DNA from: Botryllus schlosseri
Lineage: Eukaryota
Reading direction: 5' to 3'
DNA length: 64,000 bases
Assembly (NCBI GenBank): GCA_051294905.1
Contig: CM119372.1
Span: 16,246,001-16,310,000 of the forward strand
Shown here one piece after another: positions 2,761 to 57,234 of this stretch (the first letter of the stretch is position 1; each line of letters starts with the position of its first letter). The notes under the pieces are model-generated. The model saw only the letters and a program-made list of their open reading frames with translations, did no database searches and had not been told where the DNA came from. Position numbers and translations under genes: made by a program.

Positions 2761-3398
2761 CTCTAAATAGTCTTGCCGTATGGCATGAACAATGAACATA
2801 GTTCAAGTGTGCCCCCTGAATGTTTGATGACACCATCACTATCTTCCCTACCGGTAAATCTGATAATGAAAACGTATTTGCAATATGCAAGTAGCAATAT
2901 AATGAACCAATTTCATTCATTGACCATGAAAAATTCTCGCGCTTCGCGCGAAAGTGTTGACGTCCGAGGTTGCCACAACCGTTATACTATCACATCACTT
3001 TATGTATGAGTGGAATATATGACCCAGATCTTGTGTTAATCATCCAATAAGGGCCCAATACCATCGTTATTAACCTATTTTTTCCTTATCTTTAAGCGGG
3101 AGGGGCTCATTTACGTCATCGAATTTTTCGCCCCCCCCCCCCAAATATTTTTTCTGTCTATACGCCCTTGGTTGAAGTATAAAAGCAAGTGTAGTAATGC
3201 CTTCAATTTCCAGAAATAAAGCTTGCAGCAAACAATACGTTCATATTGCCAAATTTATTCCACTGGAAGCTTTTCGACTTGCTCTCTTCAGCAGTGAACC
3301 CTAGTAAATGAGGTTAACCAAGTTCGAAATATAGAAAGAATTTTGTCGTTGTGACATAATAATGACAAGTACCCAGAGTCGCGAACGGCAGTAATCAG

Positions 3399-5607
3399 TA
3401 GGGATGGTGTGAACGTGAGGTTCACGTTCGCGTTCTGTGTGTGAACCTCGGAAACTTAGAGGTTCACGTTCACAACAGAACCTTGGTATAGGTACTGCAC
3501 TGTGAACCTTTTTCATATATTACAATTTTCACTTCATTATGACATCTTCCGTTCAAATTTATTGCATTTCAACTGCGGGCTACTCTATTCATGGCGCTGG
3601 CAGTATAAAAATCAACAGTAAACGAGCATGCACCATGACAATCTCAAAAGTTTTACTTGCTTTGTTACAAAAGTTTGCTCGAAATATCCAGCTTAATTAC
3701 CGTTTGTGACTCTCTGCTGTGAGCTTGACCCGCAATCACACAACATCACGAGCGAAACGCGTAGTCAGCAATGATGCTTACTCGAACAATCAATGAGATT
3801 GATATCGTTTTCTGATGTAAAAAATCTAGCAGGTGTTCGGGGTCAATCTTGACTTCATAGTTTCACTGTATCATTAAAACCAAATCCGTACGATTGAGGT
3901 GTTGACTACGGCTGTATAACTTGTTAATGGAGTAAAATCGGTAGCAAGTATAGAAACCCGTTTCACACTCTGCCTAATATCAATGTAGCATAGTGACGTG
4001 CGGTGAGGTTCATGGCTGGTGAGGCACGACCCCCCTCCCCCCAACACACACACACCCACACAAACAAACACGCACGCACGTAAAGTACCTGATAAAGAGA
4101 CCCAAAATGTGAATAACAACAGCAACGGGTATAGAAGAGCATTTTCTTTGCACACTGATAGCCGTTGCAATTCCACATTCTACAATACATGTAGGACTGG
4201 GCGCTAGTGTGCTAATTGGACACCATCTCTTCAAGTACCGGTATAAATTATCCGAAGCACATGAAAATAGCATCCTCATTTACAAATATTTTTCCTGTAA
4301 AAAACGCTAGATTTGCCGAATTTCGAAGGAAAATACACTAGGACACTATAGGTCAAGTCAAAATACACTGGACCTAGTGTAAAAACACTAGGAGTGGCAC
4401 CACTGACCACAAACAATGGCAACACAGGCTATGTAAGAATAGCTATCACATACCACAATTAAGGGTTATAGGTATTGTAGTTGAACACAGCATAAAGACC
4501 ACAAACAACGACAATGCAGCCTATGCAAGTAGCTGTCACATACCACAATATAACGTAGCTATGGATGGAAAATACATAACAGCTACATAAGTAAGGGAAT
4601 GTATTTGCTCCGCATTACGTATTGGCCGTCGCTACTGTATAATTCCTACAAGACTGTTGTATTCCGAAATCGATAGCGCGTTTCACTGTGCGGCGATTGT
4701 CATATTGTTAGCGAATAGTGCAAGAGGCAGATTCGTTTGTGCCTCACCTGACTATTGTTTCTCTGCAATGGCATTGTCTGTAATGAAGCCGAATGTCACC
4801 TTCCTTGTCGATTTTGGAGGGGTTCTGGTGCTCTGATACTGTTAATATTTGAATTTTCGGAATCAGTGTGACGATAGCACTTGATTGATACCAGTTATTA
4901 TGAATTCCGAGCTATTTATGATGAATTGCATTGCCGCATGTGAGGCACGACCCGCCCGTGCCTCACCTGTACCTCACCTCTCCTTATGCACTGTATTTTT
5001 GAATAATAATTATGCAAATTGATGGTGTTGGGTGAAAAAATGTTCAAATTTTGTTATTTATGAGCATCGATATAAAATATCAAAATAATCATCGACTCAT
5101 GTAGTGTTTTCACAATTTTCACTTACTCACCCTGACGACAGGTGAGGCACTGCCTCACCTGCCTCATTGGACCGCACGTCACTGATGTAGCAATACCCAG
5201 ACGCCGAATACATTGTCCGGTCTGGGCTGGACCGTTAAGGCGTAAGGTTTTATTCCCTGGTAAGTCGTCGTCGAAATAGTTGGCTAAGCAACAGAAAATA
5301 TTGATTTTATGGGAATAATATATCTTTTGATTGCCTCAGTTGATACATTTAGCGACGTTTAAAACGCCAATATGTACCTCAGCATTGTGGCATTATGTGG
5401 CCCGAGTCGTCGCTAGGTATCGTGTACAGTGCACACTGTATAAGTGTACATTGATATAGGCTATCACTTCACTGAAAGATAGGATTGGAATTGGCAATAA
5501 GACGTCACGTAACGTCATGAGGTTCACGTTCGCGTTCACACAGAACCTTTAAAAAAAGGTTCGCGTTCACACGAACCTGAACGTTTCTGTGGTTCACACC
5601 ATCCCTA
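3399..5607. mobile_element. Family B MITE (TAGGGATGGTGTGAAC TIR)
   Basis: TSD GTAATCAG; GTGAAC subterminal repeats. Confidence 0.9.
3991..5184. mobile_element. MITE with TGAGGCA/TGCCTCA repeats nested in family B
   Basis: TIR (T/C)AGTGACGTGCGGT; TSD ATGTAGCA. Confidence 0.88.
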
Positions 5608-13900: not shown

Positions 13901-16900
13901 AGCAGCATAATTGGTAGTCCTATAGCTCGCGACCCAAGCGTCCGAATACTTTGATATGACGGTGTTTATCGAAAGGAAGTGTCGCACTGATTCCAAAAAT
14001 ACGAATTGAAATCTAGCCAGGGCAATAAATCTACTCCGAAATAGCCAGCAAAGGTTGATTGTTCTGAACAACGGAAGCGCGGCAACACAATGGCCAACGG
14101 CGTCAAGCAAATGATCGGAACAATGCCAATTTTCATATTTTGGTGACTATTTTTGGTTCCTTTCATTGCCCTGGTATTCGTGCGGCCCCGACCGTACTCT
14201 GAAATTCTAAATTTGGCCCTGCCACCGAAAAAGGTTGGGAACCACTGGTCTAAATATTTCGGAAAAAACAGGCGTCATGAACAGTCGGACGGCTTGCACG
14301 AGAAATTGTCGACATAAACCATATGGAATGATCGTAAATAAAAAAAAGAATGAATGTTCTGATAATGATAATGGCACGTAATGATGAGACGTTCTTTGGT
14401 CCCTGTAAGAAAGCCGTCGGGAACTTTCTTCGCCCAATGAGCCATATTGAGCCTATATTTTCAATTATCAATGACAATCCATTGTGACGTCACAACTAGA
14501 AATTCATGACCTCATGGCTAACACAAAACAAAACGGAAACAATAAAAAGCATATTGTATACAAGGGCCACGTTTTAACCATATTCGTTCTAGATTGATTT
14601 TGTTTTAAATGCAACCCTACTTCACTCGCAAATATACCTGGCCGGACGAAGCCCGTAACTAAGCCGCCGCTGTTCGTAAGACACAGTTTCTTCATAATAT
14701 CTTGAAAAATCGGTAAACAAGTGTAAACTTTCTAATATTTATTTTCTGACTTGATCGCATCGAGCACGTGCAACAGTGGATAAATGTATGTGAGAAATTC
14801 CGCAAATGGTTTAGAAGCGACAACGCGTGACCTCAATATTTCAGAGATGGGGTCGAATTTTAAAATCCTTTAGCGGTGTTGGAAGGCTTTCACTTTCGGA
14901 GGAAAAGGGCTGCTGCCAACATATTCTTAGCACCTTCACTTTAATTTGAGACCACATCATATTTAGATGGCATTTACCTTTTAGTATCTTTTCATCTAAT
15001 TACAGTCTACTCCGGTAAATTCGGACGCTTTGGTACCGCTCACTTTTGTCTAATTAAGCGGAGAAACGACTTTGTTCGAATTAACAGGAAAATCATTTGT
15101 TCGTAAAATGGTAATGCGTAAAGGCAAAGGCAGACAACGCACGACAAACACTGCACTGCTTCGAAATAAATGTTCCACCGTAGTAGTTCAGCGTATAATT
15201 TAATGAGAAGAGTGACGCTTTCAAGTACAAATTACAGTGGCCGATGCCAGACGAAAAGGACTTGGTGCGATGGAAAACGCCTACCGGGTTGTACTAGAGC
15301 GAGTTGGGGAGGATCCCACCAGACAAGGCGTAGTAAAAACGCCCTATCGAGCGGCCAAGGCAATGCTGTATTTGACGAAAGGTTATCAACAATCGTTAGA
15401 AGGTAAATAATAACATGACGGTGCGAACGTATGAGCGTTCGTCCTCTTTTGATCTTCTCTTGCTCCGTTGTAGTGTGGCGGTCTTAGTGTAACAGTTTTC
15501 ACAATGCCGGTCTGGTATTATCATAATTTCGTCCCTAGCATATATACTCAAATATACCGTATAGTGGTTCATAAAGTGGAGTTGCATTCATACAACTACC
15601 AGTATATGTAAATGATTTTCCTGTGGTTATGTGCCATGCTCTATGTTGGCTGCGGTCATGTCTTCGCGTAATCTTATTGGCATCCAATCAAATTCTACTT
15701 ACTTTTTCAGACATTATAAACGATGCGGTTTTTGAAGAAGATCACGACGAAATCGTTGTCGTAAAGGATATCGAAGTATTCTCGATGTGTGAACACCATC
15801 TGGTACCCTTCATGGGTAAAGTAAGTTCCGTCGTCAACCAGAAAATCCCATTTCCAGTGTGGTGCTTTTCAGGTCGCGATAGGCTATCTTCCGGACAAAA
15901 AAGTTTTGGGACTCAGTAAATTAGCCAGGTACGTTTCATAGTGATAAACGGTATGATATGAGCCGGTAGAGCTACTTCAATAATTTTTAGGAGATTTCCT
16001 ATCTTGTGGTATTAATCGCTAGAGTGTGAGTCTGTTGCCCTTGTCGAAATCCTAGAATTTATGTCTAATATTGCTTTCTGATAATAATTGCTCATTCATG
16101 TCCGGCCGATATAACAGTTTTATTCTATCATATGGAAAATTCATCACCTTCAAGCTGTTTAGGCATCTGCACCAGACAAATCAAATCCGTCGAGTTTTAT
16201 CAGAATTTTGTATTATTGAAAAAATGTTGGTGCCGCACCAGCAACCAATATTTGCTGTACGCCATATCGCAATAATGAACTGCCTTGGAAATGGCATTCC
16301 CAAATACAAATTCAAATTGCAATCCGCTTGTTCGGTAGCTTGCCAGCAACGTAGACTTGTTGCACAACGTTCTTTTACCGCCAAAGAATATGTGAATTGC
16401 CAATATTGAGACCATGTCGTATTGGAACCGCAGTGCCACTATAAAATTATGATATGCGGCTCTAACAGAAATACAATCAATGCTATATGTAGCTTTCAAC
16501 AGGTTCTAGGCACCTGTAGCTAGCTAAAGTGTGCTGTGGTATCACTTTTCATTGGTTGGCATTCTAAAATGCTGTTAACCAGCCGGATTGATTAGTGTGG
16601 GTGGTGGATCATCACATCAGTTAATACACAAGCATATGGCGTACACGGTATGTAGGATCGGAGCAACTATTCGTTGGACGCCGCATCACCAATCACAATC
16701 ATTGACGCTGACTGTAGGCAACTCTGCCGCTGCGCGTCGGCCGTTTACCTGACGATCGAGCGACGCCGTACCCGTACGACCAACGCTGTTTATTGATGTG
16801 TTACTTTCATCCGAAACCTGTTGATGTGATCGGTTGATCAACAAAGTGAATGGCAACGTATTCCCCGACCCTAGACCTTAGAGAAGGGGTGTCGAACACA

Positions 16901-19900
16901 ACTTGCATCGCGGGCCGGATTCAAACCTTCAGACATCTCGCACGCCGCACCAGTCGACTGATTCTAAAAAATTGCCTCAAAATCTATACCGTTGCTTATC
17001 ATTGAATTCTTTATTATTAGTATATCATTAATATTATCTTTATAAGCCTACTAACCTAGCTACGCCGATATTCGCAAACAATGGAATTGGCAATATTACG
17101 ATGACTCGCCGGTTGAATACAGTTATAAAATGCTAGAACAGTGGCTATAGCAATGATATTAGTTGTTATTTTTCTATGTCCCTTTTGTTTTAGCGGTATA
17201 CTTGCGTCAACCCTGCGTATGCGTTGTGAGTAATACACGAGATTTAATTGTAAACGCGGGCCTTGTAATTTGCTTTATTATTATTGAATCGCGATTCGGG
17301 TTCTCTAGGGACCAGGGACCTTTTGAGTTGGAAATGGTGCAGCAGTGCGACCACAGATATTTGAATTAAACCTCGCTTCTGTTTTTTGGGTCGATTTTTC
17401 ATAAAACTCTAAACTCTGTATGCACTATTTTGCTTTCTCGGAATTGGATGACAATGCAGGGATGTCTAGTTCTAGATATTAGGGATGGTGTGAACCTCTG
17501 AAAGGTTCAGGTTCGTGTGAACGTGAACCTTTTTGAAAGGTTCTGTGTGAACACGAACGTGAACCTCATGACGTCACCTGACGTCATATTGCTAATTTAA
17601 ACCCCATATTTCTATTAGGTGATTGCCTATATTAATCTACTGTACATGATACCGAGCGACGACTCGGGGCCACATAATGGCTCAGTACTTAAGTACATAT
17701 TGACGTTTGAAATGTCGCCAAATGTGTCATCTGCGGCAATCAAATGATATAATAATCCCATAAAATCAATATCTTGCGTCGCTTTGCCAACAATTTCGAC
17801 CTGATCGGACAATGTATTCGGCGTCTGAGTATTGCCACATGGATATTGAGCAAAGTGTAAAATGAGTTTCTATATACTTTCTACCGATTAACAAGTTATA
17901 CAGCAGTATAGCCAACACCCCAGTAGCACGGATTTGTTTTTTATAATACAGTATACATATGCAGTCAAGATTGACCCCGTACGCCTGCTAGATTTTTACA
18001 TCAGAAGACGATATCAATCTCATTGATTGGTTGAATAAGGATCATTTGCTGACAAAATACAGTGGATTTCGCTCTTGGGTGGGTCAAGCTCACAGCACAG
18101 AGACACTAAATATGTACAAACGGAAGGCTGGATATTTCGAGAAAACTTAACAGTACCAGTAAATTTTTGAGATTGTCAAGGGCATACTCGTTTAGTGTTG
18201 AATGTTTATGCTGTCAGCCCCATGCATAGAGTGGCCCGCAGTTGAAAGTCAATAAATTTGAACCAAAGATGTTATAATGAAGTGAAAATTGCAATGTACG
18301 AAAAAGGTTCACAGTGCAGAACCTACCAAGGTTCTGTTGTGAACGCGAACCTCAAATTTTCCGAGGTTCACACACAGAACACGAACGTGAACCTCACGTT
18401 CACACCATCCCTACTAGATATACCTGTGTCAATGTTAGCGACGACTTACTCCTAATGGGGACTAGGGAGAAACCCAAGACATCACTGCCGGGCGGTTATA
18501 ATGCGGCCAATGAACATAATCTACATTTGCTGTCGGGGGGAAAGTGTTTATTGCTTCGCGGTTCCGATGAAATGGTCTAGCGAGCCGTATGCTTGACACC
18601 CCTGCCCTAGACTGAACGTGGCGTAGTCTCGTACTAGATATCCAAACTCGCCATACGGTTGGTGACCCCGACGTTATCGTCAGGTAGAAGGCCAGCTCGT
18701 ATTGCACGATGGTCTTCCTTGCATAGGCACAGTTGCAGAAGGATTGCGCACAATCAGCGCCAATTATTATGATTAGTGATGCGGCTTCCAGAGAATAATT
18801 GCTCAGATCCGCCTTGAGGGCTAATTCCATATAGAAAATATCGATTTTGTGTCGCCATGACATTACAAATTTTCTATTGTTGTTTGACATAGTATTATGA
18901 CTTTTATGGAATTACAAAAGAAAATGGATGACCAATATGACCCTTCTGACGACAAAAGATCGTGTGGAACACTCTATACAATTATTTATAGTTTTATGAG
19001 TTACAACTTCTTTCAATATGCATCATTCTCTAGGTCGTGTCATACTGTAGATTTGAGAAATTTTCTCAGCAATAAATTTGTCCTTGTGTGGCAATCACGG
19101 CGGATGGGTTCTAAATTCCACGTCCTTTGCAACAGAGATGCATTTCGATCTAATTATCACGATTTTACTTATAATAATAATAATGATACTATCGCTGATA
19201 ATTGGTATCGAAATATATTGACAAATAACCCCGACCGAGACAAGGTATTGGTAGAGCGTCGGCTTCTTCATCGGTAGGCTCGGTCAGATTAAAACAAATA
19301 CTTGTACGCAAAGCTGGTATCTGCCCCTCCGAAAGTAGGCGCCCAGCATTTAGCCGTGGTATTGCATGATGATTATTCTTTAGGAAGATATTACTATATT
19401 TTCTTTCTCGTGGAACGCCATGTGTTACCAGGGTTGCATTTAAAACAAACGGTTGTTTAAACCACTTTGTTTAAAACATGCTTTGAACAGTGTTTCAAAC
19501 AAAGGCTTTTTTAAGTTGTATAAATACGCCATAAGTGTGTAAATACTTTCCAAAAAACATGCTCTATGAGCCTACGGACGATTACCACCCGATATAGCCG
19601 ACGTATATCGATATCGGATGGTTGAAACCCTCAAAATAGTTGGTTCAACAGCTATAGTACGTAGATAGAGATCATTGGTATGGAATGCATGTTTTGATGA
19701 TGATGATGATGATGATGAACGGCGACCGTAGAAATGATGCATGACGATATAGTCCTGGTTAAGGATATGTTTGGTCCGTATATGACCGGGTTGGAAGACT
19801 ATTTCGTCAAAAGACCTGTATTTACTCCATATTCTCAACTGTCAATGTCAATACACTGTGGCGTCAACATTGATTATTTGTGACGTCACTGCTTAAAAAA

Positions 19901-22476
19901 AAAGTTTTAAACAAGGCCCTTGTTTTAAACATGTTTGTTCCAAATTCATTTTTGTTTTAAACACAACCCCATCTGTTACAGGGCTAGTCAAATGGCACAA
20001 TTTATTCGCAATTTCATAACGTTCTTACATATGCCATCCAAACCCACTATGCAGAAGCTTGTTTGCAATGTTCACTCTCGCTGAAATATTGAGGCCCCAG
20101 TGATAGCTTCTATATCAATCATCACTTCGGAACTATTACCACGGCCATCTGTAACTTGGAGCTGCTCCCTTGTAAAAGGGGGAACTAATTTATTTTCGGC
20201 AGCACCATCGAGTGACTGGGAATATGGAGATCCGCAGGAACCTTTAGGTCACAGAGTCAGCACCGTCATTGTTCCCGAACAATTTATCTGGAAGTCCTGA
20301 GGGTCTAACGGAAAAGCTGCGGATACCAATTTTATGGCAAAGCATTTTGTCTTACCTGGCCGTGGACGGGACCCATATAGGAGGCGTGCAGTACCGGATA
20401 AATTGTAAGGCTCTCTCCTCCTGATTATTATTTTTATTCCAGAATAGTTGATATGTTCGGACGAAGATTCCAAGTGCAAGAAAGACTCACTCGTCAAATT
20501 GCATCAGCCGTAGAAGAAGCAATCGGCGCTACTGGCGTAGGAGTAGTCATTGAGGCGCAGTAAGAAAGCTTTAATCACTATTCCCGGCTATTACCCTTTT
20601 ACAATCCTTACATAACCGAGAGGCAACTTTAATGCTGTAGTGTAGATCAATCGGCCGCATAGGCTTGCAATATTTAGGTTTAGTGAAAAAGGCCGTAGTT
20701 GCTGAGCACCATAATCGCCATATACATACATACACCATACGTAACCTCAAACTAGATACAATGAGATTTCAAACTACCAAGGTGCTCGTACCTTTTCCAT
20801 TATATACCTCTACACCAGGGGTGGCCAGCCTACGACCGTAGAAGGAAATTTTGCGGCCGTGGACACGTGATTCAATTAGTATGTGTTGGCGGCCGTCGAC
20901 CTGCAAATTTAATTTCGAACTGATTTTATTTATTCCTGAAATTTTCTTCACGCCATGCGCGCTTCAATGCGACTCCATTTTTCGACTTTATTATAGAAAC
21001 GCCCTTTGCAATCTGAGCCCCACAGTACAGATCTGAACAGCAGAGGGAAGTAATGCACCCCATATAGAAATACCAACTCGGAATCATGTGCTCCTCACGA
21101 AAGAAATTTGTTTCTGGTACGTTTGGGCGATTCCAATGTCTTCCCATGAGGTGGACAATTATTTTTCCCGGCCGGACAAATGTGAAGCAGAAAATGCGTC
21201 GGCGGACAGCGACAGAATTCTAGACTAGGCTATGTTTTGCGGCGTGCAGTTATATATTTCTCAATAGAAAGCAGTGAATTACATTGTTAACACGTGTTTC
21301 TATAGATCAGGGGCGGGAATTATTTTCCCCGGCGGGCCAAATGCGCAGCGAAAAATACATAGGCGGGCCGAGACAAAGGGAGTGCAGCTTTATTTCTAAA
21401 TTGAATGTAACGAATTACATTGTTAACACATGCTGCTAAGTGGATGAGTTAATATTAGGTTGCGACGCGAGCTCTGTGTGGCTTGGTAAAATAGCCGTGC
21501 TGGTTTGTTAGCTTCGCTAGGGAACCCGAGTTACGCTTACGACTTTGGTAGGTTATGTAATCACGGTACATAAATAAGCTTGAATTCAAAGTAGACGCAT
21601 TTCCGTTTTAGTTTATGGTTTTGGTCCACACATTGCTATTCAAAATTCCAAGCAGATATTCGCGGTCCACTCGGGAATTATGTCGCGGGCCTCAATGTGC
21701 CCAGGTCTGCACTATATAACAACAATTCTGATGGGAGGTCAAGAAATAACAGCATGCAACAATGCGACTAAAGACAATTGGCTCACCATGCATCTTCATT
21801 TATAAATCGCCCTACATTTTCTAAAACATCCCTTCCATTACCTCTACTGATGAGTTTGATCACATGGGCTAAGAAAGGATAAATATTTGATAGTGGAACC
21901 AATATTATTGACGAAATTCATACGTGAATCTGAAAAACGTTTTGCGCCTCGCGCTACCATAACCAATCCCATGACAGGGCCACTCGCGAGTTCAGTGAGT
22001 ATATAGTAAGCGGCTATCAATGAACAGATTAGTCCGGAGTTCACCGGAAGTCGACATAGATAGTTTACCACGGGTGTTGGCGCCCAGCTAGTTAATTACG
22101 ACTATGTCCGAGAATGCGGCCTTAGGCTACACGAGTAATCGAAATGCGGCCAAGGTTCTGCACTCAACAGTCTACCTAGATTCTGCCAAAATAGTGTATG
22201 TTCTCACCCGAAGGGTGGTACACGAAAACATAACACTCTTTCGGCGGCGTTTCTATAACATCAGTTTTTTGCATGCCGTTAATTGAAGGCGGCTCGAATG
22301 TTACCGAAAACCTCACAAGTGTATTATACAATGCTGTGTTCAGACACATGTGCATGGTGATGCGTGGAGTCCAACAAACGATGTCCAGCACGTCAACGAC
22401 TTGCATGTTGGGAGCTTTTAAAGACGATGCCAGAAAACGCGACGAGTTCCTGGCTCTAGTTGGAATCTCAAAATAA
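10931..22476 (+). CDS. GCH1: GTP cyclohydrolase I, 200 aa; join(10931..10952,15238..15402,15711..15820,15873..15928,20443..20559,22344..22476)
   Basis: Spliced translation [200 protein letters not shown]. It has the GEDPxRxG, CEHH, GLSKLAR, QERLT and HMCMxMRGV motifs. All introns are GT-AG, phases match, total 603 nt. Confidence 0.96.
12999..13138 (-). mobile_element. 5'-truncated S1 SINE with (CCAA)n expansion
   Basis: 3' tail matches S1; TSD ACCAACGGGT at 12989-12998 and 13139-13148. Confidence 0.75.
15238..15402 (+). CDS. GCH1: GCH1 exon 2
   Basis: TTACAG acceptor; encodes [42 protein letters not shown] donor. Confidence 0.92.
15711..15820 (+). CDS. GCH1: GCH1 exon 3 (CEHH zinc-ligand motif)
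   Basis: TTTTTCAG acceptor; [43 protein letters not shown] donor; 110 nt. Confidence 0.97.
15873..15928 (+). CDS. GCH1: GCH1 exon 4
   Basis: Follows a 52-nt intron; [25 protein letters not shown] donor; 56 nt. Confidence 0.96.
17480..18413. mobile_element. Family B MITE in GCH1 intron 4
   Basis: TSD CTAGATAT. Confidence 0.92.
19429..19971. mobile_element. TTTAAA-rich MITE (family D) in GCH1 intron 4
   Basis: Starts CAGGGTTGCATTTAAAAC; TSD TGTGTTAC / TCTGTTAC. Confidence 0.85.
20443..20559 (+). CDS. GCH1: GCH1 exon 5
   Basis: TTCCAG acceptor; [44 protein letters not shown] donor; 117 nt. Confidence 0.96.
20816..22000 (+). repeat. Interspersed repeat family G (other copies about 42141-42389 plus 46711-47010, and about 57628-58270)
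   Basis: Shared blocks AATTAGTATGTGYTGGCGGCCGTC, GCAATCTGAGCCCC, ATGGGAGGTCAAGAAAT and TCACATGGGCT. Confidence 0.7.
22344..22476 (+). CDS. GCH1: GCH1 exon 6 (last coding exon)
   Basis: TTCAG acceptor; [11 protein letters not shown]...[15 protein letters not shown]. Confidence 0.96.
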
Positions 22477-26034: not shown

Positions 26035-27589
26035 GTATAGAGAGTTTCATTCATATTGATGCATCACATGAGGTATCAATTTTCGAGAGTATAAGCATTC
26101 GTCCGCATCATGGGATGCAAATGATAGTATCGCTATGTAAATCGCTATGGACAGTTGGTCACTAATCTTTATTTACCCGAACATCCCGCTTTAACAGACG
26201 TCATGGTGCGGCGCCCGCACCCATATTATACGGCCCATATTTTAGTCGAAGAGCAATAGCAAGAAGCTCTATCTGATACCGTGTTAACACTTTGCGAGAG
26301 TGATATACGTTAATATAAAATATGGCGGATCGTAAAAAAGCCATACCATATTGTAATTTATTTTACGGAGAATATAGAGGCATCACTAAACTTGCTTTTA
26401 AACTACAACATGTAAATTCTCCAGATCCAGGAAGGAAGGAACTGAAACTAATTAGAACTCAAACTAATGATACTGCGAATGAAAAGAGAAATACAAACAC
26501 TACTTCCGAAAGTGGAAAATGTGTCATATGTCTTTTTACGAGATAGCTTCAACAGTGGTCTCATAAAACAGGTCTCACGCTCAAAAAGTCAGAGACCACT
26601 TTTACAGATTAGGACACGCCATTCTGGGCTGCTAGATTACGATATGATAGGTAAATGCTATATTGTGAAACTACTAGTTTCAAACGTTACGAGGGGCCAT
26701 ATTTACTGTGATGAACTATTTCGTATGAGCGACAATGCGGTGTGAGTAAAGGGAGCCACGCTACCGCTACCTAAATTATAACCTATTCACCAATACTTTC
26801 GTGAAAACATACTTGTCACTTGATATCTACTTTGCGCGAAGCGCGATGAAAATTCCGGGCTTTATTTAACTTTCATGAAAATTAAATGTGGGTACTCCAT
26901 GAAAACAGCCCCGAAATTCCTCATTTTCGCTTTCAAATTGGAGGGCTATTCTACTTCTACTTGACAAACTGAAAATAGCGAAAAGTAAGTAGGTAGATCA
27001 CAAAAATATTACGAAGTAGAAGTAGCGAAAATGAGATTTACTTGAGTAAGTACCACAAGTAGTGTGAAACTACTTGAGTACTTCGAAAAAGTAGAAGTAC
27101 TTCGTTACTGACCACCTCTGCTGATTGGTCACTTTATTAATTTGCTTAATCGTCTTCGCGAAGACGACAAACTTTCAGAAACACCCAACATGTTCGCAAA
27201 ACATTCTACCCATTTGACCACTATGCTCGACTTAACATCGTTCAATGGCGAAAGAAAACTGCGCTGCGTAACTGAAATATTGATAATACGCGGCAAATAC
27301 TGATTAAGTTTACTTACAAATATTTTCTATTTGTTCAGTGGACCAACTTGAAAAAATGTTTCCAAGCTTACACTACGTCGTAGACTCCAGCTACCAAGTT
27401 TGAATGATTGAATGATTGCACGAACGAGAACGGAAAGCAGTCGCTATCGTCGGTACGGTATCGTCGCAACACAGCGGGACCGACATCCGTGACGATATGT
27501 CATCGCGAGTCATTAGCCTGCGGCAGCAGTACTTGAATTGATTAACCGATCTGTTCCTTTGTCCAGACTGATGTTATCAGCGTTGGCTA

Positions 27590-44641: not shown

Positions 44642-44888
44642 GTCTAGTTGAACATCGGCGCCTAAATGGCTGGCGCTGAATCTCGCTGTCCTGGCAATCT
44701 GTACCCCACAGGACAAATGCCATACCACGGGGAAAAATTATTTGCGTATGAAGGAATAGCAATTTGATATCGTGTGCGTGTGGTTAGAACGTTTGGGCGA
44801 TTTCAATATCTAATCGCTATAGCAGACAGGAGGTCACGAAATAATAACATGCAACGAAATAATAATTCTTACAGGCTCGCCTGAATAT

Positions 44889-45868
44889 TAGGGATGGTGT
44901 GAACCTCTGAAAGGTTCAGGTTCGTGTGAACGCGAACCTTTTTGAAAGGTTCTGCGTGAACACGAACGTGAACCTCGTGACGTCACGTGACGTTACTTTG
45001 CTAATTCCAACCCTTTCTTTCAATAAAGTGATAGCCTTTGCCCTATATCAATGTACACGATACCTAGCGAAGATTCGGCCCACATAATGCCACAATGATG
45101 AAGTACATATCGGCGTTTTAAACGTCGCTAAATGTATCAATTGCGGTAATCGAAGGATATAATAATTGCATAAAATCAGTACCTTCCGTCGCTTTGCCAA
45201 CAATTTCGACGAGGACTTACCAAGGAATATAAGCTTACGCCTTAACGGTCCTAGCCAGACCGGACAATGTGTTCTGAGTATTGATTCATTGATATTGAGC
45301 AGAGTGTACAACTGGTTTCTATACTCGCTACCGATACCACAAACAACAAGTTATGCAGCAGTAGCAAGCACCTTAATCGCACGAATTTGGTTTTAATGAT
45401 ACAGTAAAGATATGAAGTCAAGATTGACCCAGTACGACCGTTCGATTTTTTACATCAGAAGACGATATCAATGTCATTGATTGGTTGAATAAGCATCATT
45501 CGCTGACTACGTATATCGATTGCGGGTCAAGCTCACAGCAGAGAGTCACTAAATATTCACAAACGGAAAGCTGGATGTTCCGAGAAAATTTTTGCAGCAT
45601 AGCAAGTAAAACTTTTAAGGTTGTCGAGGTGAATGGTGCATGCTCGTTTAGTGTTGATTTTCTATGCTGCCAGCACCATGCATGGAGTGGCCCGCAGTTG
45701 AAATGCAATAAATCTGAGCCAAAGATCTTATAATGGAGTGAAAATTACAATTTACCAAAAGGTTCACAGTGCAGAACCTACCAAGGTTCTGTTGTGAACG
45801 CGAACCTCTAAATTTCCGAGGTTCACACACAGAACGCGAACGTGAACCTCACGTTCACACCATCTCTA
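44889..45868. mobile_element. Family B MITE
   Basis: TSD CTGAATAT. Confidence 0.92.
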
Positions 45869-46291
45869 CTGAATATGCTTGAATATCGATTACATGCCCG
45901 GCCTTTTTCAAGACGACACCTCACTCAGCTCTACCGGAGAATCTGATGATTCTGAGAGGATAAAAAATTCAAAGCAGTAGATATGCTGTTACCAATATTA
46001 TTGACCGATGCACTCTCGAATTATAGAAAATGTTCGCGCTCGGTTCGATTTGGGGACATAAACTCTCTGCCTACACTGAGTAGAATGAGTGTGCTCACAA
46101 ATTATGATGAAAATACCCATTTAACTGTGGGATCTCGGGGGCGACCCCCTCGCCAGAAGTTTGGCTCATCACCCTATAGTTCATTTTCTGGGAGGGAGGG
46201 CGACGAAGGGATTTTGTGGATGGCCAGGTGTAGCTGTTGTCAGGTGTTTTCGTGCGGTGCATTGTATTCCTGGTAGCCATAGTAACCTAGG

Positions 46292-53083: not shown

Positions 53084-56000
53084 GTTGATTACCTTCATCT
53101 TTTAAGGGAAAGTAACTACATGTCGAGCTTGAAATAGCCCAGTTAAGATAAATTGGGATATAATTCGCAAAATGTATTTTCCACACTGAAATCAGTGACC
53201 ACGAATAGGAAATTTACTCAATATCTGTAAGCATTTTCTGTTACGGGTGCATTCTTTACTCTACATCACAATATTCGCTTTTCATTGCTCCAATGTCACC
53301 CTCGAAAGCAAATTACGACTGGTTCGTGAAACACGAATACGAGGAATTAAGTGGCAAGAGAATTTCAGACGCACCTAAACAATCTTAGCAGCGCATATTC
53401 GGGGGCATGGCGACCACTGTATTCAATTTCCAATGACTCACAGCCAAAACGCAGGAAATGCAACATCTGGATGTATCTTCTGTCCCACCGATATGGATCT
53501 CATAACCCCGTGGGTGTTTTTTTTACAATGCATTACAATAATTCGGATGACAATAATGATTTGGAGACGATCATGTAAATATCTTCATTGAGACGAGTTA
53601 GTAGAAATCCAATTTCTTTTGCTAGACTATGACAAGAAGAGGTTTGAGATTATATTGAAGGTCATGCAGACGAATATTTGAGTCACGAATGGCTAACTTA
53701 ATGAGGCGATTTCGTGATTTGCGACGACGCCAAATCCTTTCTGCATGAGATGTATACCATCTTTAAAAAACTTACAAATGGGATTACAGCAGCCAATGGC
53801 CTCGTTACTGTCATGCTGACAATTTGACATGGTTTATGATGAGGGAATGTAGTTTGAATCTCATGCTTTAAGTTATTCTAACGTACGGTAGGTACTCCTA
53901 TCCGGGTTTGGCCTAATACCACTATTTATTTCATGACCATGATAACAGTACGTTCAAGCTCTAAGAGTAACACATGATTCTACACACCGCATATAACATA
54001 TACAACAGGCTTCATCCCAGCAATCTAAGTTCAATATCTCATGCACACTTAATACAAGATACGTTGAGACACAGTATCTATCGCAAGGAAGTAGTGCGGT
54101 GGGAAATATGGTTACCGGTGTATAATAAGACCAAGAAACGTGAGAAAATATCCTTAAATCGTTGGGTTCATGGTTTGCTTGTTAGCAATCGACATATCCT
54201 AACCACAGAGGCAATAAGCAATGTCAACATCTTGGTCATGTTGAATTTATTATATCGGACGCTGTGGAGTGTAACCATATTGCTGAATAGCCATATATCT
54301 TCAATAAATCTGCATTTACATTTTCTCAGAATCACGCTGTTGATTCAAAATTATACCCCGTTCCTTTTTTGTTTGCTGTTGATATAGTTTATACACCTGC
54401 GAAATTATTGGGTGAACGCATATTACGGATATCGAGAAAATTTTATAACGTGATACTATAATAAAAGTTTACCTGAATTGTGTTGGTGTCTATACACAAT
54501 TCTACATTATATATGTTGCTTATATAGCTAACGTACCATATTATCGAAACACCTTAATATACTAAACTGACAAAATTAATTTTCATCTTCCATCTTCTTG
54601 CAAAATGTTCATATTTTTCTGCTTCGTTGACGTTCAACAAAAGTTTGAATTCAATGAATTGACTCTATGAAATTGAAACTGGGTTGAACGCCTTCGAGCG
54701 GCCTTCGACTCACTCACTCTCTCCCTGCTATATTCGGCTCATTCGTTAGCTGCATTTTGCGAGAGAGACATTAACCTCGGTCAGACCGATATATTAGTGT
54801 TGCAGCTGTGGAACGAATCATTGCGGTATCTCGCCACTTCTTTATCCGGGTATCAGGGCATGAATTTGTTATGGGCTGCTAATGACCACGAATGAAGAGT
54901 AAATCAAGACGGATTAATCATTGACCTCTGATTAGATGCCTCGATCTAACACAGGGGTCGACAATCCCTGGCACAGAAGATTTCGAATGGAAGAAGCTCG
55001 TAGGTGACCAACCATTATTTGGTATAAATCAATAAAAGTAGAGTCTTTTTGGGCAGGTTCTATTTATCCTGAAATTTTTTTTCGAGCTTCACGCGATTTA
55101 TTGGAACCGAATATGATTTTATTGTGCATAACCACCAAACAATACATCGACAAAATACAAAATATGCTTAATATACAGCAGTGACTACAAACGTATCAGC
55201 AATTATGAGAGAACGGCCTAATAACGTATGTGGCCGATGGGATGCTTTAGTCTAGGGGTGCGCTCTGGGCAGCTTGTGGGACCATGACTATTAGATACCG
55301 GTAAGCTATAGAGGACACCAAGACATTACGTTTCGGGAAACATGCAACACCGTGAAGTGTGCGCTCTTAAAAATTTTGGCAGCGATAAAGCCTTGGAATT
55401 AAATAACCATCGCATGTTGGCAAAAACGTTTGATATTGATATGTTAAGGCGTCGAAATGACGGCGCTGAATAGTCCTATGCCTGAGTCGCACTGTGCAAA
55501 TGAGAACAATAAAAAGCCCGGCGACGAAACGCAAATTTTGAAGAATTTCTCACAAAAGAAGAATTTAATCTTGTTTCATCTGATACGTGTAAGCGATTCC
55601 AATGTCTTTTGAACAGCGACAGTCTTTATCGCGAGTTTTATAGCTTTGCAGACAAACCTAGTGTGTCATCAAACCGATTTATGAAGGGAATGTGCACATT
55701 TTTCACAATTAGGCCACACCGTCATAAGAACGTTGCTGCGCGTGTCACTTATTGACTATGGTAGAGAAGTGAGAACATAGTGGATTTTAAAACTACAAAA
55801 GCAAACCCAGAAGGTCCATCTCAGCGCTAATCGATTTATTTTTGCGATAATTAAGCAAATTACGTATATTAAATGATAGCTCTGGTGCGGTAGCGACCAG
55901 AATTTATACCTTTGGCGACCCATAGTTTGAGAGCCACTGCGGCGTAACCAATGATGTATATATAGGTATATAATAAGGTGTAACCGATGCCGTTGCCAGC

Positions 56001-56226
56001 TTCAGATAAGCGACTGATGGAATTTCTTGCTTAAAACGACAAATAAGGCAAAACTAAAATGCTTGGCACCCCAGTTGGTATCACTTTTGAAAATGACATA
56101 TTTTGGCTCGCTGCACACGAATGGTTGCCGACCTTTGGTCCAAAACATTTTGACTATCCCTTCACCCATATAATATAATATTATATCACATATATACAAT
56201 TAAATAGTATATTCATATTGAAATGA

Positions 56227-56270
56227 ACCCGAATATTTTCGGCTGACACTCGTCAGGGGTAATCGTCAGC
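56227..56270 (-). ncRNA. Mirror copy of the minimal hammerhead ribozyme
   Basis: Exact reverse complement of 56360-56403 in the left arm of the palindrome. Confidence 0.8.
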
Positions 56271-56359
56271 AACTAGTAGAGAATTGGAAAGAACATTGTA
56301 TATCAACAATCGTGATACGATTGTTGATATACAATGTTCTTTCCAATTCTCTACTAGTT

Positions 56360-56403
56360 GCTGACGATTACCCCTGACGAGTGTCAGCCGAAAATATTCG
56401 GGT
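56360..56403 (+). ncRNA. Minimal type I hammerhead ribozyme (PLE type)
   Basis: ACCC-CUGACGA-GUGUCAGCC-GAAA-AUAU-UC-GGGU: intact core, stem I ACCC/GGGU, palindromic stem III AAUAUU; predicted cleavage after C56399. Confidence 0.8.
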
Positions 56404-56857
56404 TCATTTCAATATGAATATACTATTTAATTGTATATTGAAGTTCTGTACCTCCAAGAAGCTCTTCAAATATCACATATATAATATTCAACTCTTAAGG
56501 AACATATCCGATGCTCGCGTAGATAATTGTGTGTGGTGTACAATCAATTAACCATTTTCATATCATCTTTATGTAATAAACGATTGTTTTTCTCTGCATA
56601 TGGCAGATTTGCTGTTCTGTAATGCTGTTTATATAATCTGTTTTGTTTCTTACATAATTAGCGCGATGGATTCGTTGTGCTATTCAATCGGGTGCATTGT
56701 ACACCCTGGGGTGTACCAAAATTTTTAATGCGTGTACCACTCGGATGGGGTGTACTAGGGTGCACCAGATCCGCATTACAAACGACGGATGACTTGCTAT
56801 CACAATAAACATGTAAGTTTATGCTTCAGAACAGGTTGACCGGATGTGCAATATCAC

Positions 56858-57234
56858 CAGGGTTACCATATATTGGAATCGGGAATGGAGGGCACTTTTA
56901 CCAAATCAGAATAGTTCGTTGATCAAGACTGAAAACAGCGGATTTTGCTATTTTCGCTGAAAAATTTGTGGATTTGACTAAAAAAGTTCGACTCCCGATT
57001 TACACACTTTTTAATTAGATGTATAGTGGCGCTGACTAAAAAAAGGTCGTCACTTCCGATTGACTCCCGCATCACCCGCTCAAACGTCCGTATTTGCTAC
57101 TTGGAGTCATGTATGACCATTTGCAGTCGAATCTGTCCATTGTCCCAGCTGTCAAAGCTCTGCAGGAGGATGAATTGCCAAAAACCTGAAAAAGGAGGCC
57201 AAATACTTGTAAAGGAGGACGTATGGTAACCCTA
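56858..57234. mobile_element. (C/T)AGGGTTACCATA MITE
   Basis: TSD AATATCAC. Confidence 0.88.

Follow-up and report, generated by a model that had tools for sequence, protein, structure and literature searches.

What is the perfect palindrome at positions 56183 to 56483 of this DNA, and what are the two mirror-image, ribozyme-like motifs that it carries? It lies in a window of 64,000 nucleotides (the whole stretch that was analysed), which has the character of intron-rich eukaryotic DNA with many dispersed repeats. An earlier sequence-only reading had taken the palindrome for the end of a young Penelope-like element (PLE) bearing two minimal hammerhead ribozymes. The answer given here is that it is very probably the young, dead-on-arrival 3' end (pseudo-LTR, or pLTR) of an abundant Penelope-like retrotransposon, arranged head to head between 14-bp direct repeats, with a sense copy that has the tail and an inverted copy that lacks it, and perhaps laid down by the insertion route that is proposed below.

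The surrounding window

Pfam identifies one known gene in the window:
15575 to 15916 and 22234 to 22473, plus strand: GTP cyclohydrolase I exons (Pfam PF01227, E-values 8e-13 and 8e-11)

Dispersed repeat families with 70-90% identity are found across the window, at 17476-18421, 44885-45876, 3392-3990 and elsewhere. The right flank of the palindrome (56680-56950) harbors at least two other multi-copy repeats, which are diverged by 10-20% and have summed contig depths of 1e4-1e5. Around 1.8 kb to the left of the insertion, a 138-codon open frame (53971-54384) has no Pfam match and may overlap an exon.

Architecture of the palindrome

The palindrome and its immediate surroundings are composed of the following parts:
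56183 to 56196, plus strand: left copy of the 14-bp direct repeat, probably a target-site duplication, of which the final 5 nt are also shared with the arm end
56192 to 56313, minus strand: left arm, an inverted, tail-less, 5'-truncated element end, from arm complementarity
56227 to 56260, minus strand: mirror hammerhead motif, mirroring 56370-56403, with C3 at 56256 and a predicted cut after 56231
56312 to 56318, plus strand: inversion junction, a 2-bp stem with a 3-nt loop, in native element sequence according to the family's loose ends before 56312
56317 to 56438, plus strand: right arm, the sense element end and a pseudo-LTR fragment, from the arms and the family contigs
56340 to 56357, plus strand: pyrimidine tract with CTAG at its end, possibly a 3' splice site; a similar tract occurs in a second family
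56360 to 56366, plus strand: strand complementary to loop II, a possible pseudoknot partner (7 of 7 pairs, one of them G-U)
56370 to 56403, plus strand: type I hammerhead motif with a predicted cut after 56399, from a descriptor match and covariation with the second family
56414 to 56469, plus strand: ATG opening a frame of 18 codons that extends across the tail as far as the element end, a likely ORF start
56439 to 56469, plus strand: one-sided 31-nt tail, from family 3' ends at 56470-56473 and near the arm end
56470 to 56483, plus strand: right copy of the 14-bp direct repeat, covered by an X1 contig (56448-56844) with 0 differences

The two arms (56192-56313 and 56317-56438) are 122 nt each and 100% complementary, and are separated by a 3-nt loop, GAT, at 56314-56316, for a total of 301 bases. 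Mismatch-free arms, short loop, unpaired 31-nt tail and 14-bp direct repeat are all present as the sequence-only reading had described them. The exact direct repeat, 56183-56196 and 56470-56483, is the longest one that flanks the palindrome and has only these 2 occurrences in the whole window; around 1e-4 such pairs are expected by chance from the local composition. Because the direct repeat takes in 5 nt at the outer end of the left arm (56192-56196), the inserted left arm is 117 nt long and its end has 5 nt in common with the target. The tail is found on one side only and does not pair with the left arm; it can fold on itself, at a level that is not significant (z -1.3). The AT content around the target is 77-81%, with 81% in 56160-56196. 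A self-BLAST found no second copy of the arm within the 64-kb window.

Reality and age of the insertion

The 301-base palindrome is real in the assembly. Two DNA contig sets (X1 and X5) and two raw RNA runs (X23 and X21), 4 of 24 runs, were aligned to 56290-56950. A contig from X1, which is possibly the source of the assembly, runs from the tail through the direct repeat into the flank (56448-56844) and has 0 differences. The sequence-only reading had called for a search for an empty allele, and a candidate is found in X5, a second individual: a contig with a single-copy depth of 50.9 aligns to 56469-56761 with 8 differences and 1 gap, and is preceded by 97 unaligned letters. Judged from the extent of the alignment, this contig lacks the tail, as an empty site would. 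No locus-specific piece spanning the centre of the palindrome is listed among X1, X5, X23 and X21 over 56290-56950, a stretch that starts past the left junction.

The arms differ at 0 of around 131 duplicated positions, which by the rule of three bounds their divergence at about 2%. Both also carry the minority T at 56428, where C accounts for some 79% of the X1 depth. Arm identity and the tail-less X5 contig together support the view that the insertion is young, as had been claimed, and probably polymorphic.

The repeat family

The sequence of arm and tail is that of a highly repeated family. To the 661-nt stretch, 52,376 contigs of X1 and 43,722 of X5 could be aligned. The summed X1 depth is as high as 9.6 million over 56382-56404, compared with 50.7 on the unique flank, and it is concentrated on 56313-56473, falling off at 56312 and 56473 and tapering towards the 5' side. 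A copy number calculated from this summed contig depth (1.9e5-fold, or 6e3 after division by 31) was rejected because the measure is unreliable; we infer that the repeat has thousands of copies or more.

The ends of the family are visible in the loose ends of its members. Before 56312, loose ends are found in 788 X1 and 662 X5 contigs and in 291 X23 and 823 X21 reads, and they have one upstream sequence in common, with an agreement of 0.58-0.75 across the four runs. The element therefore continues in the 5' direction, and 56312-56318 is native to it. This upstream family sequence contains the palindrome TGACGTCA, which is a CRE-type site and a possible pLTR promoter element; a motif taken from the upstream sequence is absent from the window. 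At the other end, loose ends fall at 56470, 56472 and 56473 (312, 347 and 331 X1 contigs), beyond which the consensus is AT-rich and of low agreement, which is what unrelated targets give. A further group of 3' ends (372 X1 contigs) is clipped at 56427, beside the common T56428C difference. The first letters of this group continue like the arm, and its true end therefore lies at around 56433-56438. These two 3' ends, at 56470-56473 and at around 56433-56438, are a family-wide signature of the tail.

Joints within the family are of several kinds. Among the 15 listed of 666 found, 10 join opposite strands, 4 go back by 121-157 nt in the manner of a tandem, and 1 is a skip. The spacing in the listed head-to-head joints is in the tens of bases (for example 56322/56406, 56344/56406 and 56355/56397). 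The go-back joints indicate partial tandem, pLTR-forming copies in family contigs; there are none at 56183-56483. In both DNA samples, opposite-strand joints at 56433/56466 and 56435/56467 also bring together a tail-less end and a tailed end, and these may be tail-to-tail pairs or insertions into the tail of an older copy.

Membership of the Penelope-like elements

The known features of PLE insertions are closely matched at this locus. An adjacent, inverted and 5'-truncated copy and a 30-40-bp tail are described in the available part of PMC8557442, and here the inverted copy lies head to head with the sense copy and a 31-nt tail is found at one end, alongside the two family 3' ends. A target-site duplication in AT-rich DNA is indicated by the 14-bp repeat, the 77-81% AT around it and the tail-less X5 contig, and a hammerhead motif lies within the pLTR, as in EN+ PLEs. 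The inverted pLTR, a 31-bp tail, a target-site duplication of 8-10 bp and an ORF that starts inside the pLTR are also reported together in the accessible text of PMC3846280, according to which pLTR and tail together supply the ORF's first 22 residues. In the Penelope of D. virilis, the intron ends at helix I (PMC4209133, available sections). The frame from the ATG at 56414, as well as the order of elements in the second family below, fit this pLTR coding and this intron end.

This frame has 18 codons to the end of the tail, and an open frame of such length has a probability of 0.28 in shuffled sequence. The family-majority letter at 56428 is synonymous in it, and a similar start is found in the second family. 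No splice joint at the 56340-56357 tract is among the joints listed for X1, X5, X23 and X21.

The sequence-only reading was borne out as to architecture, and the family is abundant; a linked RT or GIY-YIG ORF was found neither among the window ORFs nor in start-peptide searches, and PLE membership rests on architecture for this reason. Pfam gave no RT or GIY-YIG match in the 149 longest ORFs of the window and one arm frame (244 frames reach 60 aa), and returned from these 150 frames only the GTP cyclohydrolase I exons and weak noise. The start-peptide query of 45 aa consists of 18 element codons and 27 flank codons, so that its blanks carry little weight: the searches gave 3 candidates, 0 of which scored, and another 3 matches that were tandem-repeat junk, and a further search gave none. 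Pattern scans of prokaryote genomes and viruses gave 0 matches. A metagenome pattern scan gave 5 loci of 55-67% GC, which match the 20-nt pattern only, without its flanking stems, and were set aside as unrelated. The collections searched for the protein and the pattern contain little animal DNA.

A second, diverged family

On the minus strand at 3160-3345, outside the insertion, lies the end of a second, diverged PLE-like family, which serves as a comparison copy. It contains one feature of the same design as 56370-56403:
3259 to 3298, minus strand: second-family hammerhead, from descriptor and alignment

This hammerhead has a 7-bp stem I and an AAGCUU palindrome. Both families have the order pyrimidine tract, CTAG, hammerhead and ATG (at 3244 in the second family), and the first five codons read MNVLF in the second family and MNILF in the 56414 frame, after which there is a gap of one base. 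Between the two families, 2 of the 4 pairs of stem I have changed on both sides and the palindrome is kept. In a test of stem covariation, which involves two sequences only, all 12 cells pair and slid partners pair at 17-58%; this level of covariation was matched by 126 of 500 shuffles. Loop II differs in the second family, where 6 of its 7 bases have a complement upstream (p 0.07), and the same pairing of loop II with the upstream strand can spread over GAAA and block the core. Neither an inverted partner nor a convincing direct repeat was found at 3160-3345. TTGAAG...CTTCAA stems in the tails of both families were discounted, as their positions are not homologous in the alignment. At 26378-26409, 32 nt match the second family's tail region at 87.5% and are likely a tail-only remnant.

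The hammerhead motif and its stem II

One type I hammerhead core per arm, as the sequence-only reading had claimed, is recovered by a descriptor search of both strands of the window (128 kb), which gave 3 matches, at +56374, -56256 and -3291, and 0 matches in 100 block shuffles of the window. In the right arm, the 4-bp stem I is formed by 56370-73 and 56400-03, the core begins at C56374, stem II is the single pair G56381-C56389 (two pairs with a bulge) with a 7-nt loop, stem III is the 6-nt palindrome 56393-98, and the UUC triplet leads to a predicted cut after C56399. The motif has the core of a PLE minimal hammerhead, namely CUGANGA...GAAA...UH, a short helix I, G10.1-C11.1 and a palindromic helix III. 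Members of that class also have a long helix II, in most cases with an additional base after A9, and this is lacking here. The suggestion that a single-pair stem II is an established PLE form did not hold: in published minimal hammerheads it is helix II that is long and helix III that is minimal (PMC4209133, in the parts available), and helix II is shorter than 3 bp in 0 of 44 rows examined in Fig. S3 of that paper. A search with Rfam models, also proposed earlier, gave no hammerhead at gathering score in the window and none by E-value in 56000-56700, where the best of 9 matches are hairpin-driven miRNA models below the cut-off.

Folding predictions point to a competing structure. The minimum fold differs from the hammerhead, and a CUGAC/GUCAG hairpin captures the core with a probability of around 0.86, compared with 0.001 for stem I. 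A double-hammerhead fold has an energy of -1.0 kcal/mol, against -25.3 kcal/mol for the best homodimer fold, with no pseudoknot counted in either. The hammerheads in the 56183-56483 copy are thus predicted not to fold alone without help. Such help could come from loop II (56382-88), which is complementary to 56360-66 in 7 of 7 pairs (shuffle p 0.003), though this strand is also a near-duplicate of the hammerhead core, which could account for the match. The helix would be a pseudoknot, a class of structure that ViennaRNA cannot score, and in this model would release the core from the CUGAC/GUCAG hairpin.

It can tentatively be suggested, as a possibility of rather less than even likelihood, that the PLE families of this genome have a distinct hammerhead subtype, in which helix II has dwindled to one pair and its place is taken by a helix of 6-7 bp that joins loop II to the upstream strand and frees the core. 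This would act as a switch, with cleavage before the start codon gated by splicing or protein binding, either of which could have such a role because the partner strand sits just past the possible 3' splice site. RNA ends do not pile up at the predicted cut in X23 or X21, and fragmented libraries need not show such a pile-up. Among the matches listed in searches of the open literature there is no description of a pseudoknotted PLE hammerhead. Lunse et al. (RNA Biol 14:1499) may already include this stem II variant. The loop II motif and the start peptide are both absent from the supplement of PMC8557442.

Hairpin RNA, silencing and editing

On both strands the antisense motif precedes the sense motif, in agreement with the sequence-only reading. 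The RNA of a read-through transcript is predicted to form a 122-bp hairpin of -217 or -218 kcal/mol, according to strand, which would bury the motif as the sense copy emerges. The expected transcript was not seen: neither RNA run has any depth across the unique flank 56497-56657, where each of the 7 bins stands at 0; 6% of X23 and 3% of X21 was read, and the donors are not necessarily carriers of the insertion. RNA of the family as a whole is found from both strands, with 4,594 of 12.9 million reads in X23 and 14,697 of 22.2 million in X21 (356 and 662 per million). As many as 99% and 68% of these reads run on into unlike sequence, and they are therefore passengers in host transcripts.

Places with A>G or T>C, compared with C>T or G>A, number 61:49 and 73:53 in RNA and 30:40 and 34:45 in DNA, an editing-type excess in RNA (Fisher p 0.13 and 0.045) that is confounded by different individuals and by a stretch that includes other repeats. 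The proposal that the hairpin could feed siRNA pathways is not new, since siRNAs that match inverted Penelope arms in transformed flies are already published (PMC3681739, available text). Antisense small RNAs have also been published for rotifers.

A proposed route of insertion

The insertion probably began with the cutting of the AT-rich target, with a 14-nt stagger, by an element-encoded GIY-YIG nuclease. Reverse transcription would then be primed at both DNA ends and would start at the two sites whose spacing sets the tail, namely the tail end (~56469) for one and the inner start (~56433-56438), where 5 nt match the target, for the other. For the Anolis Poseidon element PAc, priming from two start sites has been demonstrated in vitro, and the available text explains the tail by the distance that separates two RT start sites, with both target strands cut and extended and with AT-rich targets (PMC11167929). 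Both cDNAs would stop early and join through the 2-nt match 56312-13/56317-18. The hammerheads would be passengers of the pseudo-LTR, buried in a hairpin if the copy were transcribed.

Such twin priming with early joining of the cDNAs has a slightly better than even chance of being correct, and finds support in the widely spread offsets of other copies. The alternative, in which a single cDNA snaps back at the micro-hairpin and leaves identical letters, has a little under an even chance and is favoured because of the near-exact symmetry at 56183-56483; it is in the spirit of the self-priming model in the accessible part of PMC3846280. The choice between twin priming and snap-back is an open point of PLE biology that the family's many inverted junctions could decide.

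Other explanations

A non-autonomous, retrozyme- or SINE-like short element could borrow PLE enzymes without having a coding parent, and leave the palindrome as an insertion by-product. The short and very abundant unit, the tandem-like go-back joints and the blank ORF searches are in keeping with this, and animal retrozymes are reported, in the available portion of a preprint, to derive from pLTRs (bioRxiv 10.64898/2026.07.22.740005). The idea is nevertheless improbable, as the locus itself has no tandem, the 5'-ward taper in depth and the extension of the family upstream of 56312 resemble the 5' truncation expected among copies of a longer element, two diverged families both retain an ORF-like start, and retrozymes have canonical hammerheads (PMC7229834, sections available), unlike the 56370-56403 motif. 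A MITE or foldback DNA transposon with hammerhead-like letters due to chance would supply a long inverted repeat with a direct repeat, but this is largely refuted and barely credible: the tail lies outside the inverted repeat, fixed ends and a whole-element TIR are lacking, 5' ends vary within the family and its 3' ends are of two kinds, 0 of 100 shuffles give the hammerhead descriptor and stem I covaries with the second family.

There is a very slight chance that fold-back during assembly or library preparation produced the left arm as a spurious mirror image of a single genuine copy. The identity of the arms, together with the missing piece across the centre, would suit such an artefact, which would however also mirror tail and flank; the mirror here ends before the tail, unique sequence resumes at the 14-bp direct repeat, the X1 contig crosses the right junction without difference, and both DNA samples contain many inverted joints of the family. 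It is likewise highly improbable that the palindrome is a selected regulatory unit of PLE origin, with a read-through hairpin that would silence the ribozyme and supply siRNA or ADAR pathways. The hairpin is predicted to be highly stable whichever strand is transcribed and to form while the sense motif is still incomplete, and the family RNA from both strands, the editing-type excess and the fly siRNAs all lend something to the proposal; against it stand the silent unique flank, the passenger status of most family reads, an editing hint that compares different individuals over a stretch with other repeats, and a site that is seemingly absent in another individual and so gives no sign of selection.

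Comparison with known systems

The layout of the insertion is the textbook PLE one, and the locus is ordinary: inverted copy, tail, target-site duplication and hammerhead pairs have all been published. As a locus it matters little, being a further truncated copy of an abundant retroelement. In common with EN+ PLE insertions (Arkhipova et al. 2013, PMC3846280, and Craig et al. 2021, PMC8557442, as far as their available text extends), it has a head-to-head inverted copy, a one-sided 31-bp tail, a target-site duplication, a palindrome at the junction and an ATG in the pLTR with a frame through the tail. It differs in having no ORF body at 56183-56483 and a direct repeat of 14 bp rather than the 8-10 bp of PMC3846280. 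PAc (Frangieh et al. 2024, PMC11167929, accessible part) also has a hammerhead at the ORF start, which here is a likely one, a stem-loop tail and an AT-rich target, and likewise shows no RNA-seq ends at the predicted cut. However, the PAc start codon is within its hammerhead, whereas here the ATG is 15 nt past the predicted cut, and PAc has a tested protein. Non-LTR retrozymes (PMC7229834 and bioRxiv 10.64898/2026.07.22.740005, in the text available) resemble it as short, abundant hammerhead repeats with some tandem family joints; the arrangement here is inverted rather than tandem, with a tail and a direct repeat, and the hammerhead is non-canonical.

The PLE hammerheads of Cervera 2014 (PMC4209133, available sections) are also of type I, with a conserved core, a 4-bp helix I, G10.1-C11.1 and a palindromic helix III, and occur as pairs on opposite strands, 100-700 bp apart. 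Their helix II has 3-8 pairs, in contrast to 1 pair and a 7-nt loop here, where there is also no extra unpaired base past A9 and loop II has an upstream complement. A single-pair stem II and a possible helix between loop II and the stem I side are shared with an example of Perreault 2011 (PMC3088659, in the part available), in which a one-pair stem II with a 6-bp pseudoknot cuts fast. That example is tested, metagenomic and of type II with a proper stem III, whereas the present motif is a predicted type I form with a dimer-type stem III in an animal retroelement. The sole unusual feature of the locus is a stunted, possibly knotted stem II with an upstream complement in a predicted self-cutting motif. 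Present in two diverged families, it offers a cheap test case for the role and the cutting of PLE hammerheads.
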